From Lama guanicoe (Eukaryota), in the NCBI GenBank assembly GCA_013239625.1, contig MU053559.1:124001-188000 (forward strand): DNA of 64,000 nucleotides, given 5' to 3'. How positions within the stretch are numbered: position 1 is the first letter of the stretch; the number at the start of each line of letters is the position of its first letter. Below the pieces are notes generated by a model, which saw only the letters and a list, made by a program, of their open reading frames with translations, was not told the origin of the DNA and did no database searches. This document shows, in pieces, positions 1-13,000 of the stretch. The translations under genes were made by a program, and so were the position numbers.

Positions 1-1964
1 GTACGTGTACCCAAGGTCTCTGGCCGACGGTGCTGGAGTAAGGACACAAGTGTACATGGAGTGCCAGTCTCGAGGCAAGCGGCCTCGATTAGGAGGGCGA
101 GGTGGTACCTGGGGCCGGTGTTCCATGAAAGTGGCATTGGGAAGGCGACTGTCTGTGACCTCTATGTCCGCAGAATCGAGCACGCTAACGGCTGGGGGAT
201 GAAAGAGGCAGTCGGCAGAGTACGATACAGAAACCATCTAGGATCTGCTAACTGAATTAATATACTAGCCTCAGCTCATTTCCTTCCCCCTAGAAAGCAC
301 AGACTTGCCTATTTAACTAGGCTCCGCCCCCACGAATAGGTATCCAGATCCCGCCTTCTTAACTAATTTTGGAACTGAATAACCCTCCAGACCTTCCTAC
401 TTTCTTCTAGTAATACGAAGATCCCGCCTCTCATATTAAACCCGTAGCCCCCACCCTGGAAAGAGCTACTCTCGGATTCGGCTGCTGAAGATTCCAGGGC
501 CCGCCCTCTCATTAGCCTATGAACCTCAACCTCTCCTTGACATTTCAAGACACGCCCCCAGTGCGTTTATACGCTCCACCCCTTGACTAGTCGTCTAGGC
601 CCGCCCCGTAACTAAATCCCCATCCTCTACCCTCTCCAGTCTCCGCCTCCTCAGAAATGCCACTCGAAACCCAGCTGAAAAAAGACAGATCCAATCCCGC
701 ACCAACGATGAATCTTGCAACGTTCACCTACTGCAATAACCCTCTCTATGTCACCTCCTAGAGGAATATTCTAGGATAACCCCAGCCGCCTCGAATCGCC
801 ACCGAGCCCCGCCCTCCCAACTCACGCCCATGGGCCCCACCCAGCGGAGTAACTAGCAACCCCGGGCCCGCCACCTCAGAACCCAGCTCCACTCCGGCCA
901 CGCCCTCCAGGAGGCCCAGCCCCCATCACGCACCCTCCTTGGGGCGCAGGCGCAATGAGACGCCGGCCCTGCGAACCAGCGCCGCCACGTCGGCCGCGGC
1001 TCGGGCCGCCAGGGGGCGCGCGTCCAGCCGCGCCAGGAGCTGCCGGGCGCTGGGGCCCGCGGGCGGGGAAAGGCCGCGGCCTGCGCGAGTGAAAAGAACA
1101 GATCAGCGCCCACCCTGAGCCTCAGCGAACCACCACACCCCCGACGATCGAAGACCTAGTATGCCCCTCAAGATCCCCGGGGACCGAGACCACGCCCTCC
1201 GTAGTTCCAGAGGTCGCCGACTGTCCCTCTCACCTCCCGCTATCCCCGACCATCGCGGGTGTGCCCGTGGACCCCCCGCCTGACCCCACGATATCCCTGG
1301 AGATAGCTGTTTAACCTCAATACTCCTGGACACCTCCCAACACCCCGCAAATACCTCTGGAGGTCTCCGACTGCCCCCTTGTAACTCCGGACTACAAACT
1401 CTCCTCCCCAATATGGAGAGGGACCTAGATTTCCCCCAGATGTCCCGACAGAACACGGTCTGCCCCCCACCCCAGTGGCCGCGGCACCCCCGAGTCCCAT
1501 TCCAGATATCCTAGGCAACCCTGACGGCCCACGTAGCCCCAGAGTGCCCCTCCACACATCCCCAGAGGCCCCCGCCTCACTCCCCAAAATGCACCACAGA
1601 CCCTGAGTGCCCAGGTGTCCCCAGTGACCCGGGCAGACCCCTCTGACACATCTCCCCTGAGATTCCCGAGAGCCCCCGGGTCTGGTGCGCTGCCCCGCAG
1701 CGCGGGTGTGGGTGCGGGTGCAGGTAGGGGGCCTCGAGCCCAGCCCCGGTCGCTGGGCCCCTGCCCTCTACGGCCGCCGCCTGCCCGCCGCCGCCGCCGC
1801 CGCTTGGGCGCCAGGGCTGCTTTGTTTACCACCTGTCGAAAGGAAAAGGTGAGGAGCAGACAGGAGGGGCGAGGGCTGGCAGGGACGCGCCCGCTCCCTC
1901 CCCCCCGCCCCGTACCTCCTCTGCTCCTCCTAGGGTCCGCGGCGCCCCCCGCAAGCCGCTCCAT
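1..1964 (-). CDS. MAGIX: MAGI family member X-linked (PDZ protein), first 4 coding exons; gene continues off the left edge
   Basis: Exons 1964-1916 (MERLAGGAADPRRSRG, G|gtacgg), 1080-934 (GRGLSPPAGPSARQLLARLDARPLAARAAADVAALVRRAGVSLRLRPKE), 191-109 (AVSVLDSADIEVTDSRLPNATFMEHRPQ), 32-1 (HRRPETLGTR...). All GT-AG with matching phases; peptide matches the remembered human MAGIX N-terminus; synteny next to GPKOW. Confidence 0.92.
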
Positions 1965-2653
1965 GACCAGGAGTCGGCGGGGTGGACGCACGGCCGCCAG
2001 CGACGCGTTTGGAGCGCCCGGGCGCGCTCACCTGGCGGCCCGCCCGGGCCTGGACGCGGCTGAGGCCGGCCGGTCCCGTGCCCGGCGCCCCGACCAGCGC
2101 CGTGACCTACCTGGCGGCCGGCAAGGAGGCCAGGCTGTGGGAGCCAGCGCGAGCGCTTGGCCTCGCTCTGTCTCAGGCGCTGCCTCTGTTTCCCAGGACC
2201 GTGGGAAACCTCTTTCCACCCAGGGGATGTTGTTACTCCTCTGGTGAGAAGGGGAAGTCGAGGCCCAGACAAGTTAAGGGCCCCACCTGAGCTCTGACAA
2301 CTACCAAGGGGATCCAGAACCCGAACCCAAGTTTACCAGGGTGTTCTGCCGCCTCCAACAGAGCTTTGCACAGCCTAGGCACTCAGTAACTTTGCAGTGA
2401 ATGCTTGCCTCAGCTGGTCCCTACTGGGGAACTGGAAGAGTGTGGTGGGCTGGGGAGGGTGGCGCCCTTGGAGCCTTTGGGGTCCATGGGAGGCTTGGAG
2501 GCCCTGAGCAGGATAAGGTTTGGGGACTCAAAAAGTAGGGAAGGGCAGGCCCCCTGGAGAAGGAGGGGCGGTAGGGGCCTGGACTTGAGGGGGCTTTGAA
2601 GGCACGTTGGTGGGAGGGGACGCCAGCCAGTGAGAGGTGAGAAATGAGGTCCT
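717..2653. repeat. Left arm of ~1937-bp inverted repeat (palindrome arm)
   Basis: Reverse complement of 3917-5853; paired positions sum to 6570 throughout (mirrored ORFs 853-1113/5457-5717, 2405-2599/3971-4165), so no indels seen. Confidence 0.97.
1600..2200. promoter_or_regulatory. CpG island / MAGIX promoter and first exon (duplicated at 4370-4970)
   Basis: Very GC- and CpG-rich, (CCG)n tract at ~1784-1803, surrounds the MAGIX ATG. Confidence 0.75.
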
Positions 2654-3916
2654 ATCTAGGTTTGAAAAGGGGTGGGGTATCCAGAGCTGAAGGCCCAAAT
2701 GGGAGAGTGATTTGCACAGTGCTACTATAGTGGAAGGACGAATGGGGTGCAGTGAGAGAAGGTCTGTGGCCACCATTTTGTGGAGGAAGAAACTGAGTGC
2801 AGGAGGGGCCCAGGGCCCCATAGCCAGCCAACAATAGCTCTGGATTTGGCACCTTACTCCGCACACTTCCTTGGCCCAGTTCCTGTTCCACTATGGGCTG
2901 TAGATGCACTGTGTCCTGACATCCATTCTGGCTGGCTGGACAGCCTCTCTCATCCACTTTGCAGGGTCCCAGTGTTGTGGTACGTGAAAGGGCTGATTGT
3001 TCTCTGCTTTCATTCCTCCTGCAATCTCATGCCCCTCCCATCTCTGACCTGACCTTGTCTGAAGAGGGGCACACTGGACCTCCTTCCCTCCTCTGCCTTG
3101 TTCTCGTGGTGACTACATGGGGTTTTCACAGCTCCCCAAATAGGCCCTCTGTTATTCTCACCTCCCTGCCTTTGCCCATGCTGTTCCCTCTCCCTGGGAG
3201 GCCTTTTCTGACATTTGTCCACCACTGCATGTTATCAAGGCCCAGTTCAAAGGCTCCAATCGTCCATTCTTCCCTTTCTGAAACAAAGAAAGAACACATG
3301 TTCATATGCAGATGGTGTATGATTGACTATGAAGAATTGTAAACCAAAGTGCTTCTGTCTGTGGGGAAGAGTCCAGGCTGATTTATTTTCCTGAGTCTTC
3401 CCAAGAAAATTCGGTTGAGGAGAAAAACCAAGGCTGAGACCTAAGCATCCATGTCCTCTCCTCCATTAGGAAGCCTTGCCTCTCTCTCCTCTAGGGCCCA
3501 GTCCCCTCTCCCTCCCCCTGGGATGTCACCAATTCTGCAGGGCAGTGCCAGTCACCGGGATCATTGGCCTCTGGTCGTCTGCCTGCCTGAACTGGGATCT
3601 GCTGTGTCCCTCTTGGCTATCCCTGGAAGTACAGCTGATGTGTGAGCTCCCAGGATCCCCAGCAGAAGATGGCCGCATCTGCCCACTTTCTCTTCGAAGA
3701 AGCCAGGATGCTTGCTTTATATAATGCTATGTAAACTTCTTACCTATGGCTTGTGGAATGAGAAATAAGCCAACACTGGCACAATTATTATTCCCTAATT
3801 TTATAAATTAGGAAACAGAGGCCCAGACAAGGTAGCTTACTCTCTGCCTGGCTCTGTTCTTATTGAGACTTCGCCGCGCACTGAAGATGGAAATGGCAGC
3901 TTCTAATCTGGCGTTC

Positions 3917-5853
3917 AGGACTTCATTTCTCACCTCTCACTGGCTGGCGTCCCCTCCCACCAACGTGCCTTCAAAGCCCCCTCAAGTCCAGGCCCCTACC
4001 GCCCCTCCTTCTCCAGGGGGCCTGCCCTTCCCTACTTTTTGAGTCCCCAAACCTTATCCTGCTCAGGGCCTCCAAGCCTCCCATGGACCCCAAAGGCTCC
4101 AAGGGCGCCACCCTCCCCAGCCCACCACACTCTTCCAGTTCCCCAGTAGGGACCAGCTGAGGCAAGCATTCACTGCAAAGTTACTGAGTGCCTAGGCTGT
4201 GCAAAGCTCTGTTGGAGGCGGCAGAACACCCTGGTAAACTTGGGTTCGGGTTCTGGATCCCCTTGGTAGTTGTCAGAGCTCAGGTGGGGCCCTTAACTTG
4301 TCTGGGCCTCGACTTCCCCTTCTCACCAGAGGAGTAACAACATCCCCTGGGTGGAAAGAGGTTTCCCACGGTCCTGGGAAACAGAGGCAGCGCCTGAGAC
4401 AGAGCGAGGCCAAGCGCTCGCGCTGGCTCCCACAGCCTGGCCTCCTTGCCGGCCGCCAGGTAGGTCACGGCGCTGGTCGGGGCGCCGGGCACGGGACCGG
4501 CCGGCCTCAGCCGCGTCCAGGCCCGGGCGGGCCGCCAGGTGAGCGCGCCCGGGCGCTCCAAACGCGTCGCTGGCGGCCGTGCGTCCACCCCGCCGACTCC
4601 TGGTCATGGAGCGGCTTGCGGGGGGCGCCGCGGACCCTAGGCGGAGCAGAGGAGGGACGGGGCGGGGGGGAGGGAGCGGGCGCGTCCCTGCCAGCCCTCG
4701 CCCCTCCTGTCTGCTCCTCACCTTTTCCTTTCGACAGGTGGTAAACAAAGCAGCCCTGGCGCCCAAGCGGCGGCGGCGGCGGCGGGCAGGCGGCGGCCGT
4801 AGAGGGCAGGGGCCCAGCGACCGGGGCTGGGCTCGAGGCCCCCTACCTGCACCCGCACCCACACCCGCGCTGCGGGGCAGCGCACCAGACCCGGGGGCTC
4901 TCGGGAATCTCAGGGGAGATGTGTCAGAGGGGTCTGCCCGGGTCACTGGGGACACCTGGGCACTCAGGGTCTGTGGTGCATTTTGGGGAGTGAGGCGGGG
5001 GCCTCTGGGGATGTGTGGAGGGGCACTCTGGGGCTACGTGGGCCGTCAGGGTTGCCTAGGATATCTGGAATGGGACTCGGGGGTGCCGCGGCCACTGGGG
5101 TGGGGGGCAGACCGTGTTCTGTCGGGACATCTGGGGGAAATCTAGGTCCCTCTCCATATTGGGGAGGAGAGTTTGTAGTCCGGAGTTACAAGGGGGCAGT
5201 CGGAGACCTCCAGAGGTATTTGCGGGGTGTTGGGAGGTGTCCAGGAGTATTGAGGTTAAACAGCTATCTCCAGGGATATCGTGGGGTCAGGCGGGGGGTC
5301 CACGGGCACACCCGCGATGGTCGGGGATAGCGGGAGGTGAGAGGGACAGTCGGCGACCTCTGGAACTACGGAGGGCGTGGTCTCGGTCCCCGGGGATCTT
5401 GAGGGGCATACTAGGTCTTCGATCGTCGGGGGTGTGGTGGTTCGCTGAGGCTCAGGGTGGGCGCTGATCTGTTCTTTTCACTCGCGCAGGCCGCGGCCTT
5501 TCCCCGCCCGCGGGCCCCAGCGCCCGGCAGCTCCTGGCGCGGCTGGACGCGCGCCCCCTGGCGGCCCGAGCCGCGGCCGACGTGGCGGCGCTGGTTCGCA
5601 GGGCCGGCGTCTCATTGCGCCTGCGCCCCAAGGAGGGTGCGTGATGGGGGCTGGGCCTCCTGGAGGGCGTGGCCGGAGTGGAGCTGGGTTCTGAGGTGGC
5701 GGGCCCGGGGTTGCTAGTTACTCCGCTGGGTGGGGCCCATGGGCGTGAGTTGGGAGGGCGGGGCTCGGCGGCGATTCGAGGCGGCTGGGGTTATCCTAGA
5801 ATATTCCTCTAGGAGGTGACATAGAGAGGGTTATTGCAGTAGGTGAACGTTGC
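3917..5853. repeat. Right arm of ~1937-bp inverted repeat
   Basis: Reverse complement of 717-2653; differences seen at 801/5769, 1914/4656, 1928/4642 and 2648/3922. Confidence 0.97.
4606..5636 (+). pseudogene. MAGIX: Partial duplicate of MAGIX (exon 1 4606-4654, exon 2 5490-5636) without downstream exons
   Basis: Same coding sequence as left-arm exons 1-2; exon-1 donor reads GG (4655-4656) instead of GT; the repeat ends inside intron 2. Confidence 0.85.
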
Positions 5854-6374
5854 GAATATTGGACTTCCTGTTTTCAAGACCATCCTCTGAGCCACCGTAC
5901 TATTCTGCTTTCCAAACATTGTTACTATGTCCCATTTCATTTAATTATATGTATACTTTCACATTTAAAGGGTCCAATATATTTGCTCCATTCAAGCCAT
6001 GTGCCCATTTAGCCCATCCCGTAATGTTGTTCATTTAAGTGGTCTTCAAGCTTTTGCTACAATAAATAATACTCTGATGAATCTTGTATAAATTTTTTTT
6101 GCACATCTTCGATGATTTCCTTGGGAAGAATTTTTAGCAGATTTGTAGTATTCTTTCTTATGACTATTTAAGTATCAGTCTCTTAAGGTCCTACACAAGA
6201 GGAGTCTATCTCATTAATCTTCTGAAGCCTTAGGATCTGGCTCTCACGACATATTTAAAGTTGGTAGGAATTGTTTTTGCTTTTGTTTTTGCTTTTGTTT
6301 TAATATCCGTTTAAGTGTCATTGATCCCCGCTGGAGTAGGAGCCTCTAGAGAGGAGGCCCCTCTATTTTATTAA

Positions 6375-6582
6375 TACATTTGACCCTTGAACAAAAGGGG
6401 GTTAGGGCAGCGACCCAGTGCAGTCTAAAATCCCCATATAACTTTAGTCTCCCCTCCATGTTCCACATCCTTGGATTCAACGAATCTTGCATCATGCAGT
6501 ACTGTAGTAGGTAGTTAGTGACAGATACCCACATATAAGTGGCCCCTTGCAGTTCAAACCATGTTATTCAAGGATCAACTGT
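6375..6582. mobile_element. TcMar-Tigger MITE (MER8/Tigger2-like)
   Basis: ta-catttgacccttgaac ... ttcaaggatcaactg-ta terminal inverted repeats with TA target site. Confidence 0.75.
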
Positions 6583-6809
6583 ATCTGAATCCAGAATTTG
6601 TCCAGTATTAAATCTGTCACGTGTAGGCACCATTTACATGTCTATTTTTTATTATCATACACAACTGGCACTCACAGATGTTTTTATTATTGACTTTTGT
6701 TACCTACACTTCCCACACCAGTAGGGCAGAATAACGAGCACACAGTAAACGCCTACAGGAAGGAATCAATACTTGGCAAGAACGAACCCACCTTCTACCA
6801 AGCCTACCT

Positions 6810-7035
6810 CCTCCAAGAACTACATTTCCCGGTATGCTTGGCGCCACGCTCTCCTGTGACGTAAAAAGAGCGGCAATTACTTCCTATGGCCCCTTAGCCT
6901 TTGACCGCCAGTGCCGCAGTGTTTCACGGGTAAAGTAGTTCTAGTGCTCGTGGTCCGCCCCCCGGAAAAGTGAGAACAAACTAAACTTCCCATCAAGCAG
7001 CGCTCCGACCTGGGAAGAGGGGCAAGATGGCGGAC
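6810..7035. promoter_or_regulatory. GPKOW promoter
   Basis: ZNF143/ACTACA-type motifs (gaactacatttcccggtatgc 6817-6837, reverse copy ~6920-6941, aactaaacttcccatcaagc ~6979-6998), CRE half-site tgacgt, YY1 motif aagatggcgg overlapping the ATG. Confidence 0.7.
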
Positions 7036-10000
7036 GCTGAAGATGGTATATTGCGGCCGGCGAGAGCCTCCACTGTCCCAATTTCATTCACCTTCACTCG
7101 AGTATCTGCCCGGATTCTGCTGGCGGGAGACGGCGCGGGTGCGGCTCCGGAGGATAAGGATTTCTTGAAGACCGTGGAAGGGAGAGAGCTACAGAGGTGA
7201 AGCGCTGGGTCTTTCGTCCGTTGGAAACCAGTGCAGTGGGTGCCTGCGGGAGGGTGGAATCAGAGTTGATTGTCTTGGTGACAGCGGCCTGTAAAGCCTA
7301 AAGCACTGCGTGAGGAAATTTCGTGGAAGCGAGAAGGCGGGAGTTAGTAGGAGAGGGGGGCGGAAATTGGACCTGTTGACCCTAGGGGTTGAAAGGAGAG
7401 GATATAATCCTGAAAGGGAGTGTCTGTAGGGCTTGGAGGCCCTGAGGAGCCTGCGTTCTGAAAAAGGGAAAGAGGGGAGAATGACAGGACTCCTAGTGTC
7501 CCAGCTAAAGCGGTGGGGCTTGTCCAATATGGCAAATGGGATGGAGCGGCAGATTCAGGTTGGAGGAGACCCTCATCAGCTTAATTGGGAAAGGAGAGCC
7601 TGATACAGGGACTTCCAGAAGAGAATCAACCATCCAGGAGGCTGGTGTGGAGCCTGGAGCTGGGGAAAGAGTCCAGGCTGAAGATGGTGATTTGTAGGTC
7701 ATTGTGGAAACCATGGAAGTGGGTCTTGGGGTGAATAGAGGGTCCAGAACTGAGACCGGTTCCTCAGAAGCATTGGTATTTAAGTTGAGGGTGGGGCAGA
7801 GAATCCAAAGAAAGCCTCACCAGCGACCTAACAGGAGAGCCAGACAGAAGAAGGGAGGGGTTGAGTGACTTGGGGCTGAGGGTGAGTTTGGCTCTTGTGT
7901 TTTTCCCCTGAATGAAGGGGTATGGCTCAGAACCCACTGATCGTGCTGCTCCCCCAACTTCACCCCTCTGTGTCCACATCAGTGTGAAGCCCTCAGAAGC
8001 CCCCAAGGAACTTGTCATCCCTTTGATCCAGAATGGCCATCGCAGGCAGCCACCCACCCAGGCCCCTGGACCATCCATACATCCTGAGGTCTTGGCGGAT
8101 GGAATGCTGTCCCAAGCTGTGAAGGAACTCATTGAGGGTGAGTGCTCCCTCCTTTGCCTTGCCCTAGTGAAGGAAGAAGGGGAGGAAAGCGGAAGGATAG
8201 GGTGGGACCTCATTGCTCCCTCCCATTCTTCCTTAGAATCCAAGAAGTCTCTGGAGGAGAGAGAGAATGCGGGTGTCGACCCCACGCTCGCTATCCCCAT
8301 GATCCAGAAAGGATGCACCCCCAACGGGGAAGGGGCAGACAGCGAACCCCGGGCTGAGACAGTGAGCTGGCCCCTTGCCTCCCTCCTTCCCCAGTCTCTC
8401 ATTACCCTGTCGGCCAGGCCGGCCTCCCTGAACACAGAAGGAAAAGTCTGTGTGTATACAAGAGGCCTGCTGCCTCTCCCTTCCTCCTTTCATCATTTTT
8501 AGAAGCATTAACAAGTGAACAAGTACTCGGATTCTGGGATTATCTGAATGAGACAAGGAGCAGAGGGAACAGGAAATGTAGAAATCCTGAGAGTAGACTC
8601 TGCCTGGAGTGTTTGAGGAACACCAGGGAGACCAGTGGAGCTGGAGTGAGGGGTATGGATAGTTGATGAAGTCAGAAGTCAGCCACAGTGAGGACTTTGG
8701 CTTTTACTCTGAGTGAGATGAGAGCCATGGGAGGGCTCTGAGCAGAGAAGGGACAAGACTTACGATTTGACAGGCTCTTTCTGGCTGCTATGAGCAGAAC
8801 TAGTGAGCAAAGGTGGAGGCAAGGAGACCAGCAGTCCAGGCTAGAGAGGGTGGAGGCTCAGGCCAGAGCAGTAGGAGTGAGGTCAGGAAGGACAGGGAGG
8901 GTTTAGTGAGAGATGGCAGAGCAGGGTGAATGCTCCTAATGGCAGTGATGACCCAAACACTGGCATGGTGGCAGGAAATGGCATGGGAGCAGGTGTGGTG
9001 TGTGCCTATCAGTGAGGCAACTTGTGGTGTGTTTGCAACAAATATAAAGAATTGAAGGACTGATGATGGGAGGTGATAACACGAGAAGTGAGGGGTGTGT
9101 CCACAGCAGTAACCAAGTCTGTTTTTCATACCCATGGACCCTACTTTTCACTCTTTACTCACAGTTTTGGTTTTTTGCAATGCTTTCTTGGTTCCTAGTT
9201 CTCCTATGGCCCCAAACCACTCTCTCTTTTGACTGAACTGTTCTCATTGGCCTTCAGACATCCTCTGGTTTCTTTCATCTTAAAAAAAAAAGACCTTCAC
9301 TCTCTCTCCTGTTCCAGCTTTGGCCTCCTTTCATTTTCCCTCCTCTCGTAGCCTTCTACACCTCAGTTGATTACAGTTCCATCCATCCTTCCTCTCACTT
9401 AGCCTAAAAACCTTAGGGTCACGCTTGACGCCTTTTATTTCATACCCTGTGTACAATCTGTCAGCAAAATCCTGTCATCTCCTTTTTCAAAATATATCCA
9501 GAGTCAGATGACTTCTCACCATCACCTCTACACCACTCTGGTCTGAGCCACCAGCATTTCTCATCTGGACTAATGCAGTAACTTCCTCTCTGGTCCCCTT
9601 TTGGCTGCCATCCTATTGTGGCTTCTGCCCAGCTCTCCTCAGCCTCCATATCTGTTTCAATCAGATTGACTTTCATGATGCTCTTCATACATAGATCTTG
9701 TCCTGGCTCAGGGCCTTTGCTCTTATTGTCCTCTCTGGAGCGCTCTTTCTTCTTATATCCTCAGAGCTCCCTCTGTCATCTTTTGGTCTCTGCTCAGATG
9801 TCAACTCAGTGACATTCCCTTCGCCATCCCTCTGCATCCCCTTAACCTCCTTTATTTTTTTTCACATAACATATCACTATCTGACATACTGTTTTATGTA
9901 TTTTATTTGTGATGTCTCCACAACTAGAATGAAAGCCACATAAGGGGAGGAGTTTTTGTCTCTTTCGTCTGCTGCTTTATCCCCAGCACCTAGAACAGTA

Positions 10001-13000
10001 GCTGGCACAGAATGAATCCTTTATAAATATTTGTCAAAGGACTGAATGTGGAGGAGTAAAGTGAGGGATAGCAAGAGTAAATCAAAACTCACCCTTGAGT
10101 TGACTGGGAAAGAAGCCTCAAGGGTCACCCCATGTGTGATAGCGAGCACACTTCAGAGGGCCCACTGTAAGCCAAACCTGACCATCCTTTCTGTGCCTAA
10201 ACTCATAGGTGCCAGAGGAGGCTGATTACGAGGCAGTCCCTGTGGAGGCCTACGGGCTGGCTATGCTGCGGGGCATGGGATGGAAACCTGGCGAGGGCAT
10301 TGGCCGCACCTTCAATCAGTGAGTTGTAGGGTAGGGGCAAGGGGACAGCAGATGGGCCAGGGAACAAGACCTGCATGATTACCACCCACCCAGAACCATC
10401 CAGGCAGGGAGAGGATGCATTTCCACCCTGAGTATTTCAGTAGCCCCTTCCACTACTGTTCAACCTCCTTTTGCCCTTCAAAACCCCGTAACCTAACAAG
10501 ATCTCATTTACGTAAAGATTGCCTGTCTGGGCATCAGCCTTCTCAGCTGAAAAATGGGGATAATAACAGTACTCACTTCCCAAGTCTGTTGTGAGAGTTA
10601 AGTGAAATGATGCACATTAAGCACTTTACAGTAAGCCCTGGCCCCAGATAAGCACATACTATATATTTGCTATTGTTATCACATGGGCTTACGATCCCTT
10701 CTTCCACAGTTTTAAACTCCCCAAAAATCTGAAAACCAAACTTTTTTTTCCATAAAACAATTGGTAGTCAAGTGTAACCTGAATTGACACTGAGTATTTT
10801 ATGTTCTGTTTCTTCTGCTTGGTGAATAGTCATATGGTTTCCCCTGTGGAAATATTAGTATATTTGGTTATTGGAACCTGCCTCAGATCCCACTAGAGAT
10901 ACTGTGTAATAGAGGGTATGCACAACATGTTATTAGGTTAAACCAAATGAAATTGCCATTTCTGTCCTAATATGAGATTCGCAAGGATATTCTGGAACAT
11001 ATTGATAGGGTGGGATTTGGGCAGTGGTTGGGGGTAGGGGTGGGGGACGGGGCCTTGAAGACAGATGCATCCCCCACAACAAGCCCATATCCTGTGTTCC
11101 CTGCAGAGTGGTGAAGCCTTCGTGTCAACGCACTGAGGCCCAAGGGTTTAGGGCTGGGCGCCAGCCTGACTGAGGTCCAGGCCCTGGCCCCCACGGGCCC
11201 CCACCGGCTGCCGAGGCCAGATGAGCAAGAGAAGGATAAGGAAGACCAGCCTCAAGGACTGGTGCCTGGAGGAGCTGTGGTGGTTCTTTCTGGCCCTCAC
11301 CGTGGCCTCTATGGGAAAGTAAGCAACCAGGATGTGCCTGGAGCCTGAGACAGGCAACAGGGACGATTGATGTGAGGGTCAGAGGGCAGAAGAATTGGGT
11401 CTTGGGTAGGAAAGCTGGAAGTCTTTGTCTTTCAGGCCTTCCTGGCCCACCGCCTCATTCAGTAACTCAAGACTATTTGTTGGGCCTGTCTTGAGCCTCA
11501 GCTTCAACTAAAAGGGAGAGAATCCTTATGCCACAAGTCCCTGAGGATTAGATACTTAAAATAGATCCAAGCCCCACGGTCTGCTGGGGGAGACACAGGG
11601 GTGAGGCCTATCAGAGGTAGGGACAGACAGTTTGGTTTTAGGACTGTGGGTCAAGATCACTCAACCCCTGCCTCCCTTCTTCCCCACAATACTTTAGGTG
11701 GAAGGCCTCGATCCTGACAATGTTCGAGCCATGGTCCGTCTGGCCGCAGGGAGCCGCATGGTGACTGTTAGTGAGTACTGCCTGCGGCCTGTCTCCCAGC
11801 AGGAGTTTGACAAGAACTCCTTGGATCTCAGTGAGTGAGCCTCTTACCTAGCTGGGGAAATTGGAGAGGCATTCCTGGGGGTGGTAGGGCCTATCTTGGG
11901 GGCAGAGGTTAGATCTGCAGAGGGGTGGAACAATGGACTGCTGGCAAGGGTGATTTCTGGTCAGAGTTAAGAAGTGAGAATGAACATAAGTGGTATATTC
12001 CATTTAATTGAAAAAAGATTGATCTAGTAACTCTTTAGCCAGCCTCCTTCTGAGGCAGGAGAAACAGATGTGGAAACCATTTCCTACCCTTGGGAGGTCT
12101 TTATTTGGGGTGGTGAACCTCTCTTTTGCTAGGGAGTGGGAGCAGCTAGGACTAGATGGTGATGGGGAGGAAGGCATTTTAGGCATATCGGTGGGATGGG
12201 CCAGTTTGGCTCGTGGGAGATGGGTGCTGTCAGCTCTCCAGGACTCCCTAGCCCATACTAGGCGGTTGGCTCAGGTAAGCACTGTCAGGACTGGCTGGGA
12301 TGGTAGAGGAAGGCTTCCTGACAGAGGCTGAGATGGTTGAGAGGAAGGGGAGAGTGTTCTAATAGCCCAGGCAAAAGCTTGATGGTATGAGGGGGCATTT
12401 TGGCAGATGGGAGGTGGTCTGAGGCTGGGGTGTGGCCTGGAAGGAAAGAGGGTGAGATACTGAGTCTCTTGTCTGGTTCTCCCCACACCCTCTTGAACAG
12501 ACCAGGTGAGCAAAACCTCAGGGCAACAGAACGGAACAGCCTCATCACGAAAGGCTCTTCGGAATCAGGACCTCCACGGCCGGCAGGTGGACTCAGAGAG
12601 GAAGCGGAAACACCTTCCAGACCGGTGGGACCCTGGGCATCTGGGATGGGGGTAGGGGGAAGATCATGGTGAGGCTCCAGCAGTCAGAGAAAGCTTCCCC
12701 AGGGCAAGGCACGTGCCTGGAAGGAACTAGGAACAGCATTATGGGTGGGTTTCACAGCATTGGTGAAGGTGGTGTGCCCAGAACGTGCCTCTGATAAAGA
12801 GCTAAGCCTCCTGTCGGCCCCTCTCTACAGACAGGATGGGCCTGCAGCCAAGAGTGAGAAAGCAGCCCCCAGGAGTCAGCACTGGTTGCACAGGGACCTG
12901 CGCGTGCGGTTTGTGGACAAGCTGCACAAGGGCGGCCAGTATTACAACACCAAGGTGGGAACCCCGCACCTGCGTCCGCTTCCTCCCCCAGGGACTGGGC

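Follow-up and report, generated by a model that had tools for sequence, protein, structure and literature searches.

We analysed a stretch of 64,000 nucleotides from a Lama guanicoe contig (assembly GCA_013239625.1, MU053559.1, positions 124,001 to 188,000), hereafter the window. The start of the window holds the 5' end of the PDZ-encoding gene MAGIX on the minus strand, an inverted repeat carrying its first two exons, and a gene on the plus strand which we take to be GPKOW, the name given in the preliminary description. The PDZ assignment is our reading of the families PF00595 and PF17820. The features are as follows.

1 to 32, minus strand: start of MAGIX exon 4, from the spliced translation; the gene continues beyond the window.
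109 to 191, minus strand: MAGIX exon 3, single copy, outside the repeat and mapped only here.
717 to 2653, minus strand: left arm of the repeat, with a CpG-rich promoter region and exons 1 and 2 of the working MAGIX (GC 0.67, CpG observed/expected 0.66).
934 to 1080, minus strand: working copy of MAGIX exon 2 (147 nt, phase 1-1), from homologue matches and the spliced translation.
1916 to 1964, minus strand: working copy of MAGIX coding exon 1, with its GT donor intact at 1915-1914, from the spliced translation.
2654 to 3916, no strand: spacer, the segment that would invert; unique sequence, 1263 nt.
3162 to 3179, minus strand: spacer segment that codes for residues 1 to 6 of the model XP_032330732.1, followed by GT (6/6 residues on the minus strand; best plus-strand match in the spacer 3/6).
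3917 to 5853, plus strand: right arm, a spare partial MAGIX (upstream exon, exons 1 and 2) that faces GPKOW and has no exon 3 behind it, from the arm comparison.
4330 to 4459, plus strand: upstream exon of the Camelus ferus model XP_032330732.1, from protein mapping; a mirror copy lies in the left arm.
4606 to 4654, plus strand: MAGIX coding exon 1, spare copy, from the arm comparison; the C at 4642 is synonymous (Arg13).
4655 to 4656, plus strand: GG in place of the GT donor, spare copy, from the arm comparison and the assembly sequence alone.
5490 to 5636, plus strand: spare copy of MAGIX exon 2, with both splice sites (acceptor and donor) intact in the sequence.
6725 to 6864, plus strand: tail exon from the short C. 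ferus model, directly upstream of the GPKOW start (46/46 residues).
7027 to 7196, plus strand: GPKOW-like exon 1, which carries an ATG of its own at 7027 and ends in phase 2, from sequence.
7983 to 8137, plus strand: GPKOW-like exon 2, ending in phase 1, from sequence.
8237 onwards, plus strand: start of GPKOW-like exon 3, from sequence.

The gene carrying the repeat is, by its predicted protein, the camelid MAGIX. Splicing the left-hand exons 1 to 4 at the GT donor yields 103 residues. A MAGIX model of Vicugna pacos is identical at 102 of them and two Camelus models at 101 each, with exon 2 matching Camelus models at 100%. The intact left-arm donor described earlier thus holds at 1915-1914 on the minus strand. 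An exon-1-like peptide starts 121 of the 162 fetched proteins that carry the exon-2 core, hence exon 1 with its donor represents the normal MAGIX start. Residue 67 (191-186, minus strand) is Val here and Ile in the three camelid models compared; Val is found in 46 of 157 fetched proteins with the motif and may be an ordinary variant.

A single inverted repeat was found within positions 1-12000 of the window, with arms of 1937 nt each in which the partner of base x is 6570-x. The whole structure of arms and spacer spans 5.1 kb. Compared base by base, the arms are identical at 1933 of 1937 positions (99.8%), with four mismatches and no indels. The gapless alignment over the full arm suggests that the assembly is accurate here. 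The differences, given as left/right on the gene strand, are T/C at 801/5769, resembling an ordinary CpG transition, T/G at 1914/4656, A/C at 1928/4642 and C/T at 2648/3922. The GG reported for the right arm at 4655-4656 is indeed what the assembly letters give, and the neighbouring difference at 4642, in the first position of codon 13 (AGG or CGG), is synonymous as described, both codons encoding Arg. Intron 1 also contains a potential cassette exon at 4738-4941 (plus strand), mirrored in the left arm, with an AG acceptor and a GT donor. A similar peptide is read through in models of cattle, bighorn sheep, goat and reindeer, and in the guanaco sequence both arms interrupt the frame with a TAG at 4800-4802.

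With exon 3 on the left side only, the right arm amounts to a two-exon MAGIX stub. Unspliced read-through past the GG stops at 5143 after 179 codons, and such a transcript is likely a substrate for decay. Two routes around the lost donor are visible, as the upstream exon at 4330-4459 joins exon 2 in frame and bypasses exon 1, and a weak GT at 4976, among cryptic donors ranked by consensus match only, is also in frame. Because of this bypass and the in-frame GT, a dead donor placed before the full-length gene would likely lower MAGIX expression rather than abolish it.

On the other side of the right arm, about 1.2 kb of unique DNA separates the repeat from GPKOW and contains poly(A)-type hexamers at positions 6061 and 6607. 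MAGIX exons 1 and 2 both end in phase 1. Joined to GPKOW exon 2, the MAGIX exons meet a stop after one codon, and a fusion by this route was rejected. The sole in-frame join found runs from MAGIX exons 1-2 to GPKOW exon 3 (5636 to 8237). Among the 120 listed of 144 MAGIX homologues, none carries a Pfam family other than PF00595 or PF17820. Also in this interval, around 6375-6585, lies a short element bounded by inverted termini, presumably a Tigger/MER-type DNA transposon remnant.

Second copies of the MAGIX start appear well beyond the camelids. A search for proteins of 46-149 residues returned 14 matches, comprising seven unnamed fragments and seven named short models from armadillo, lynx, jaguar, wild camel, chinchilla, reindeer and goat. 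This is evidence at the protein level, and a broken single locus could account for each of the models from jaguar, lynx and chinchilla. In goat, the short XDB66862.1 is numbered consecutively with the full-length XDB66863.1, and in reindeer CAI9180549.1 is followed by the full-length CAI9180550.1, in each case in records of the same length. Armadillo has a "MAGIX-like" model beside "MAGIX", the two being identical over both exons. Over the exon-2 core, short and full-length models of the same species share 47/47 residues in armadillo, 46/47 in reindeer and 45/47 in goat, while short models compared across armadillo, reindeer, goat, jaguar and camel share 36-43/47. Since two and one of the 47 residues differ in goat and reindeer, respectively, their short models represent separate copies rather than isoforms. 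Judged from these proteins, the greater likeness within species is the pattern of concerted evolution, with independent recent duplications as the alternative. Recombination between the arms is probable; conversion would keep them alike, and a crossover from time to time would turn the spacer around. The inverted repeat at the MAGIX start is thus likely old among placental mammals, as far as protein models can tell. We consider it somewhat more probable than not that conversion has kept this old repeat identical since the split of armadillo, goat and human and that its spacer has flipped between camelid lineages.

The case for such flips comes from the C. ferus model XP_032330732.1. The model consists, in order, of six spacer residues, the upstream exon, exon 2 and the tail at 6725-6864, and it skips exon 1. 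In the guanaco, the spacer segment at 3162-3179 points to the left arm, and the tail of the model lies on the GPKOW side. For the model to be collinear, the spacer would have to be reversed in the C. ferus assembly. Taken from predicted proteins, this implies either a real inversion difference or a mis-joined repeat. None of 33 candidate longer proteins carries the upstream exon.

A likely human counterpart is the inverted pair HsInv0074, which we place at MAGIX by its coordinates and by a reported MAGIX variant position, for which the genome build and the shift to hg38 are assumed. HsInv0074 joins chrX:49,155,846-49,157,442 and 49,162,798-49,164,374 (hg38), repeats of 1597 and 1577 bp, in a row that names no gene and is silent about exon content and arm differences; its orientation was O1 in 54 of 54 samples, or 85 alleles (PMC13629690). 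A MAGIX variant is listed at X:49,022,676 in PMC5414091. We infer that HsInv0074 lies at the 5' end of MAGIX and is the orthologue of the camelid repeat. Both are X-linked inverted pairs with arms of similar size; the human pair differs in its spacer (5355 bp versus 1263 here) and in showing a single orientation in the 54 samples. The terms "MAGIX", "GPKOW" and "Xp11.23" are absent from the searched supplements of PMC13629690 and PMC7263195, the latter being partly searchable.

A close known system is the pair of inverted repeats at FLNA-EMD (HsInv0389), X-linked, more than 99% identical and found across eutherians, with an orientation that varies by species, according to PMC3961182 and bioRxiv 10.1101/2020.04.20.051185, which cites Caceres 2007. 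The MAGIX repeat shares the arm identity above 99% around a unique spacer (1933/1937), the second copy in distant eutherians (at the protein level only) and copies more alike within than between species (over the exon-2 core). As to orientation, one C. ferus model implies a flip, or maybe a mis-join, and the human samples show O1 in 54/54. The two differ in architecture. The FLNA-EMD arms, about 11 kb long, lie on either side of whole genes, and their inversion is a frequent polymorphism in humans, whereas the MAGIX arms measure 1.9 kb and hold the first exons of the gene itself. Large X palindromes are described as exceeding 10 kb at more than 99% identity (bioRxiv 10.1101/800185); with arms of 1.9 kb and a total of 5.1 kb, the MAGIX repeat falls short of that size. 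No description of a MAGIX inverted repeat was found in the literature searched, while subscription papers and preprint supplements (e.g., the inversion tables of bioRxiv 10.1101/2021.12.20.472354) may list it.

Whether the G that removes the donor at 4656 is real is a separate matter. Our leading reading, to which we assign a probability of roughly 0.55, is a sequencing miscall. The right arm would have been built or polished from thin coverage in a stretch of 80% GC, with the T after GG read as G at 4656 and the A after GG read as C at 4642. The animal would then have GT in both arms, and an inversion would leave the MAGIX protein unchanged. The preliminary description had itself cautioned against a T-to-G miscall, and the caution is well founded, as PMC3295828 ranks the reading of GGT as GGG first among the systematic-error motifs of Illumina data, with other errors mostly after G. 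The diagnosis of such an error rests on read strand bias, whereas the likeness at 4656 is one of sequence context. Excess error affected only 660 of 61,779 GGT sites there (~1%; PMC3295828), a rarity that counts against a miscall, as does the gapless alignment of the arms.

The GGT-to-GGG context is present at 4656, and there are 48 such sites on this arm strand; the motif alone therefore proves little. The difference at 4642, 14 nt away, is a change of GGA to GGC and likewise preceded by GG. On the G-rich strand, a GG in fact stands directly before each of the three interior differences, and the right-arm base is G or C in every case. The probability of at least three such cases among four is 0.017, rising to 0.055 when a GG on either strand is accepted, both values being calculated post hoc. 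Local GC around the donor is 0.79-0.80. One of four random differences would hit the donor with a chance of 0.4-2%, depending on the sites counted, which points to some non-random process; a motif-specific miscall or a selective sieve explains the hit equally well as function. Short sequence words sampled from 3700-6100 form a complete set in none of the 24 listed sequencing runs, and the top seven runs reach a share of 0.97. Losing the words over 4642, 4656 and 5769 predicts a share of 0.968, a value that any two or three private differences would fit equally. The argument is weak, as a word share names no missing words and contigs derived from reads lose one branch of a bubble; six of the top seven runs, marked as possibly being the source, stem from two studies and so do not constitute independent support. 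RNA runs with small word shares (0.06-0.41) are not counted in this argument. A motif that allows either allele had no match among metagenome contigs, which carries no information on the question. Short models outside the camelids that contain exon 1 number five (from armadillo, jaguar, lynx, goat and reindeer), and every one of them splices at its donor. In XP_031302491.1, an older model from dromedary, the frame shifts twice within exon 1, once near the equivalent of 4642 judging by the protein, and this out-of-frame exon suggests a spot that may be hard to assemble.

A tentative alternative, which we hold to be possible though less probable than an error, is that the G is a genuine paralogous variant, young and neutral in a dead-end copy, and a transient lesion rather than a device. 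A mutation that kills the donor would persist only in the stub, as its transfer to the working copy would create a loss-of-function or hypomorphic MAGIX allele to be purged, and conversion in the opposite direction would erase it. Such a selective sieve accounts for the 0.4-2% coincidence, since a lesion purged from the working arm would outlast neutral differences. The one or two exon-2 residue changes in the reindeer and goat spare copies indicate that real lesions do accumulate there. In X palindromes, conversion is biased towards G/C at more than 2:1 (PMC8981503), so that a T-to-G allele would be slower to disappear. Exon 1 is passed over in the GPKOW-side model of C. ferus; a dead donor would cause this, but the skipping also fits an alternative first exon or assembly errors. 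A real lesion further requires two transversions 14 nt apart, both of the miscall type, and two of four differences lie this close with a chance of about 9%. That none of the 24 listed runs contains the complete word set counts against it as well. Arm identity of 99.8% would imply fast turnover, so that a lesion common to Camelus is unlikely.

The preliminary description went further and proposed an on/off or isoform switch. A splice-dead exon 1 would be maintained and swapped before full-length MAGIX by inversion or conversion, and the live copy would feed a MAGIX-GPKOW product. The geometry works, as 1197 of 1937 nt (62% of the arm, agreeing with the approximately 1.2 kb stated earlier) lie outside the donor, and a crossover there or a conversion tract would move GG before the full-length gene. 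The live exon 1 would then come to lie on the GPKOW side, as claimed, though separated from that gene by another exon 2 and 1.2 kb of unique sequence. In the C. ferus model the spacer would be reversed, MAGIX exons 1-2 are in frame with GPKOW exon 3, and the GG read-through, stopping after 179 codons at 5143, would likely be degraded. There is human precedent in HsInv0030, an inversion between repeats overlapping the starts of CTRB1 and CTRB2, which exchanges promoter and first exon (PMC6748972). The MAGIX repeat likewise overlaps a gene start; both CTRB partners are whole genes according to the same text, whereas one partner here is a two-exon stub. Complete and compatible gene bodies are absent at MAGIX, where no exon 3 follows on the right and GPKOW exon 2 is out of frame.

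The regulatory part of the proposal holds up poorly. The G is so far an assembly letter and bears the signature of a known miscall. Five other mammals have short models that splice at this donor, which means that its loss is no conserved feature. By Pfam content, a fusion is seen in none of the 120 listed homologues, and the likely human orthologue keeps O1 in 54/54 samples (85 alleles). The bypass through the upstream exon and the weak in-frame GT at 4976 would likely make any "off" state leaky. To our knowledge, no recombinase or regulation acts at such a site. We regard the switch as improbable; a miscall or harmless decay is more likely. The same low standing applies to the combined reading that an old repeat kept by conversion, camelid spacer flips and a real splice-dead exon in South American camelids together form a recombination-driven splice switch, which we would be reluctant to credit. 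If true, each flip or conversion would create a MAGIX knock-down allele together with a live stub splicing in frame into GPKOW exon 3. A regulated switch of this kind would be very surprising.

The notion that the entire repeat is an assembly artefact, by fold-back or false duplication, draws on the 99.8% arm identity but was rejected as barely credible, given the C. ferus model linking arm exons to the GPKOW-side tail, the separate and slightly different short copies annotated next to the full gene in goat and reindeer, the human inverted pair of 1597/1577 bp catalogued at the inferred location and the unique spacer.

The consequences depend on the status of the G. As the miscall that we favour, it would call for caution with single-base calls in the GC-rich repeat arms of this assembly. 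If real, camelids would carry a standing source of MAGIX loss-of-function alleles created through conversion. Pseudogene-to-gene conversion acts likewise at human disease loci. The lasting result is the repeat itself, a small and likely old X-linked inverted duplication of the first two MAGIX exons. It would be a second case of the FLNA-EMD kind and might prove useful for comparing rates of conversion and inversion across mammals.
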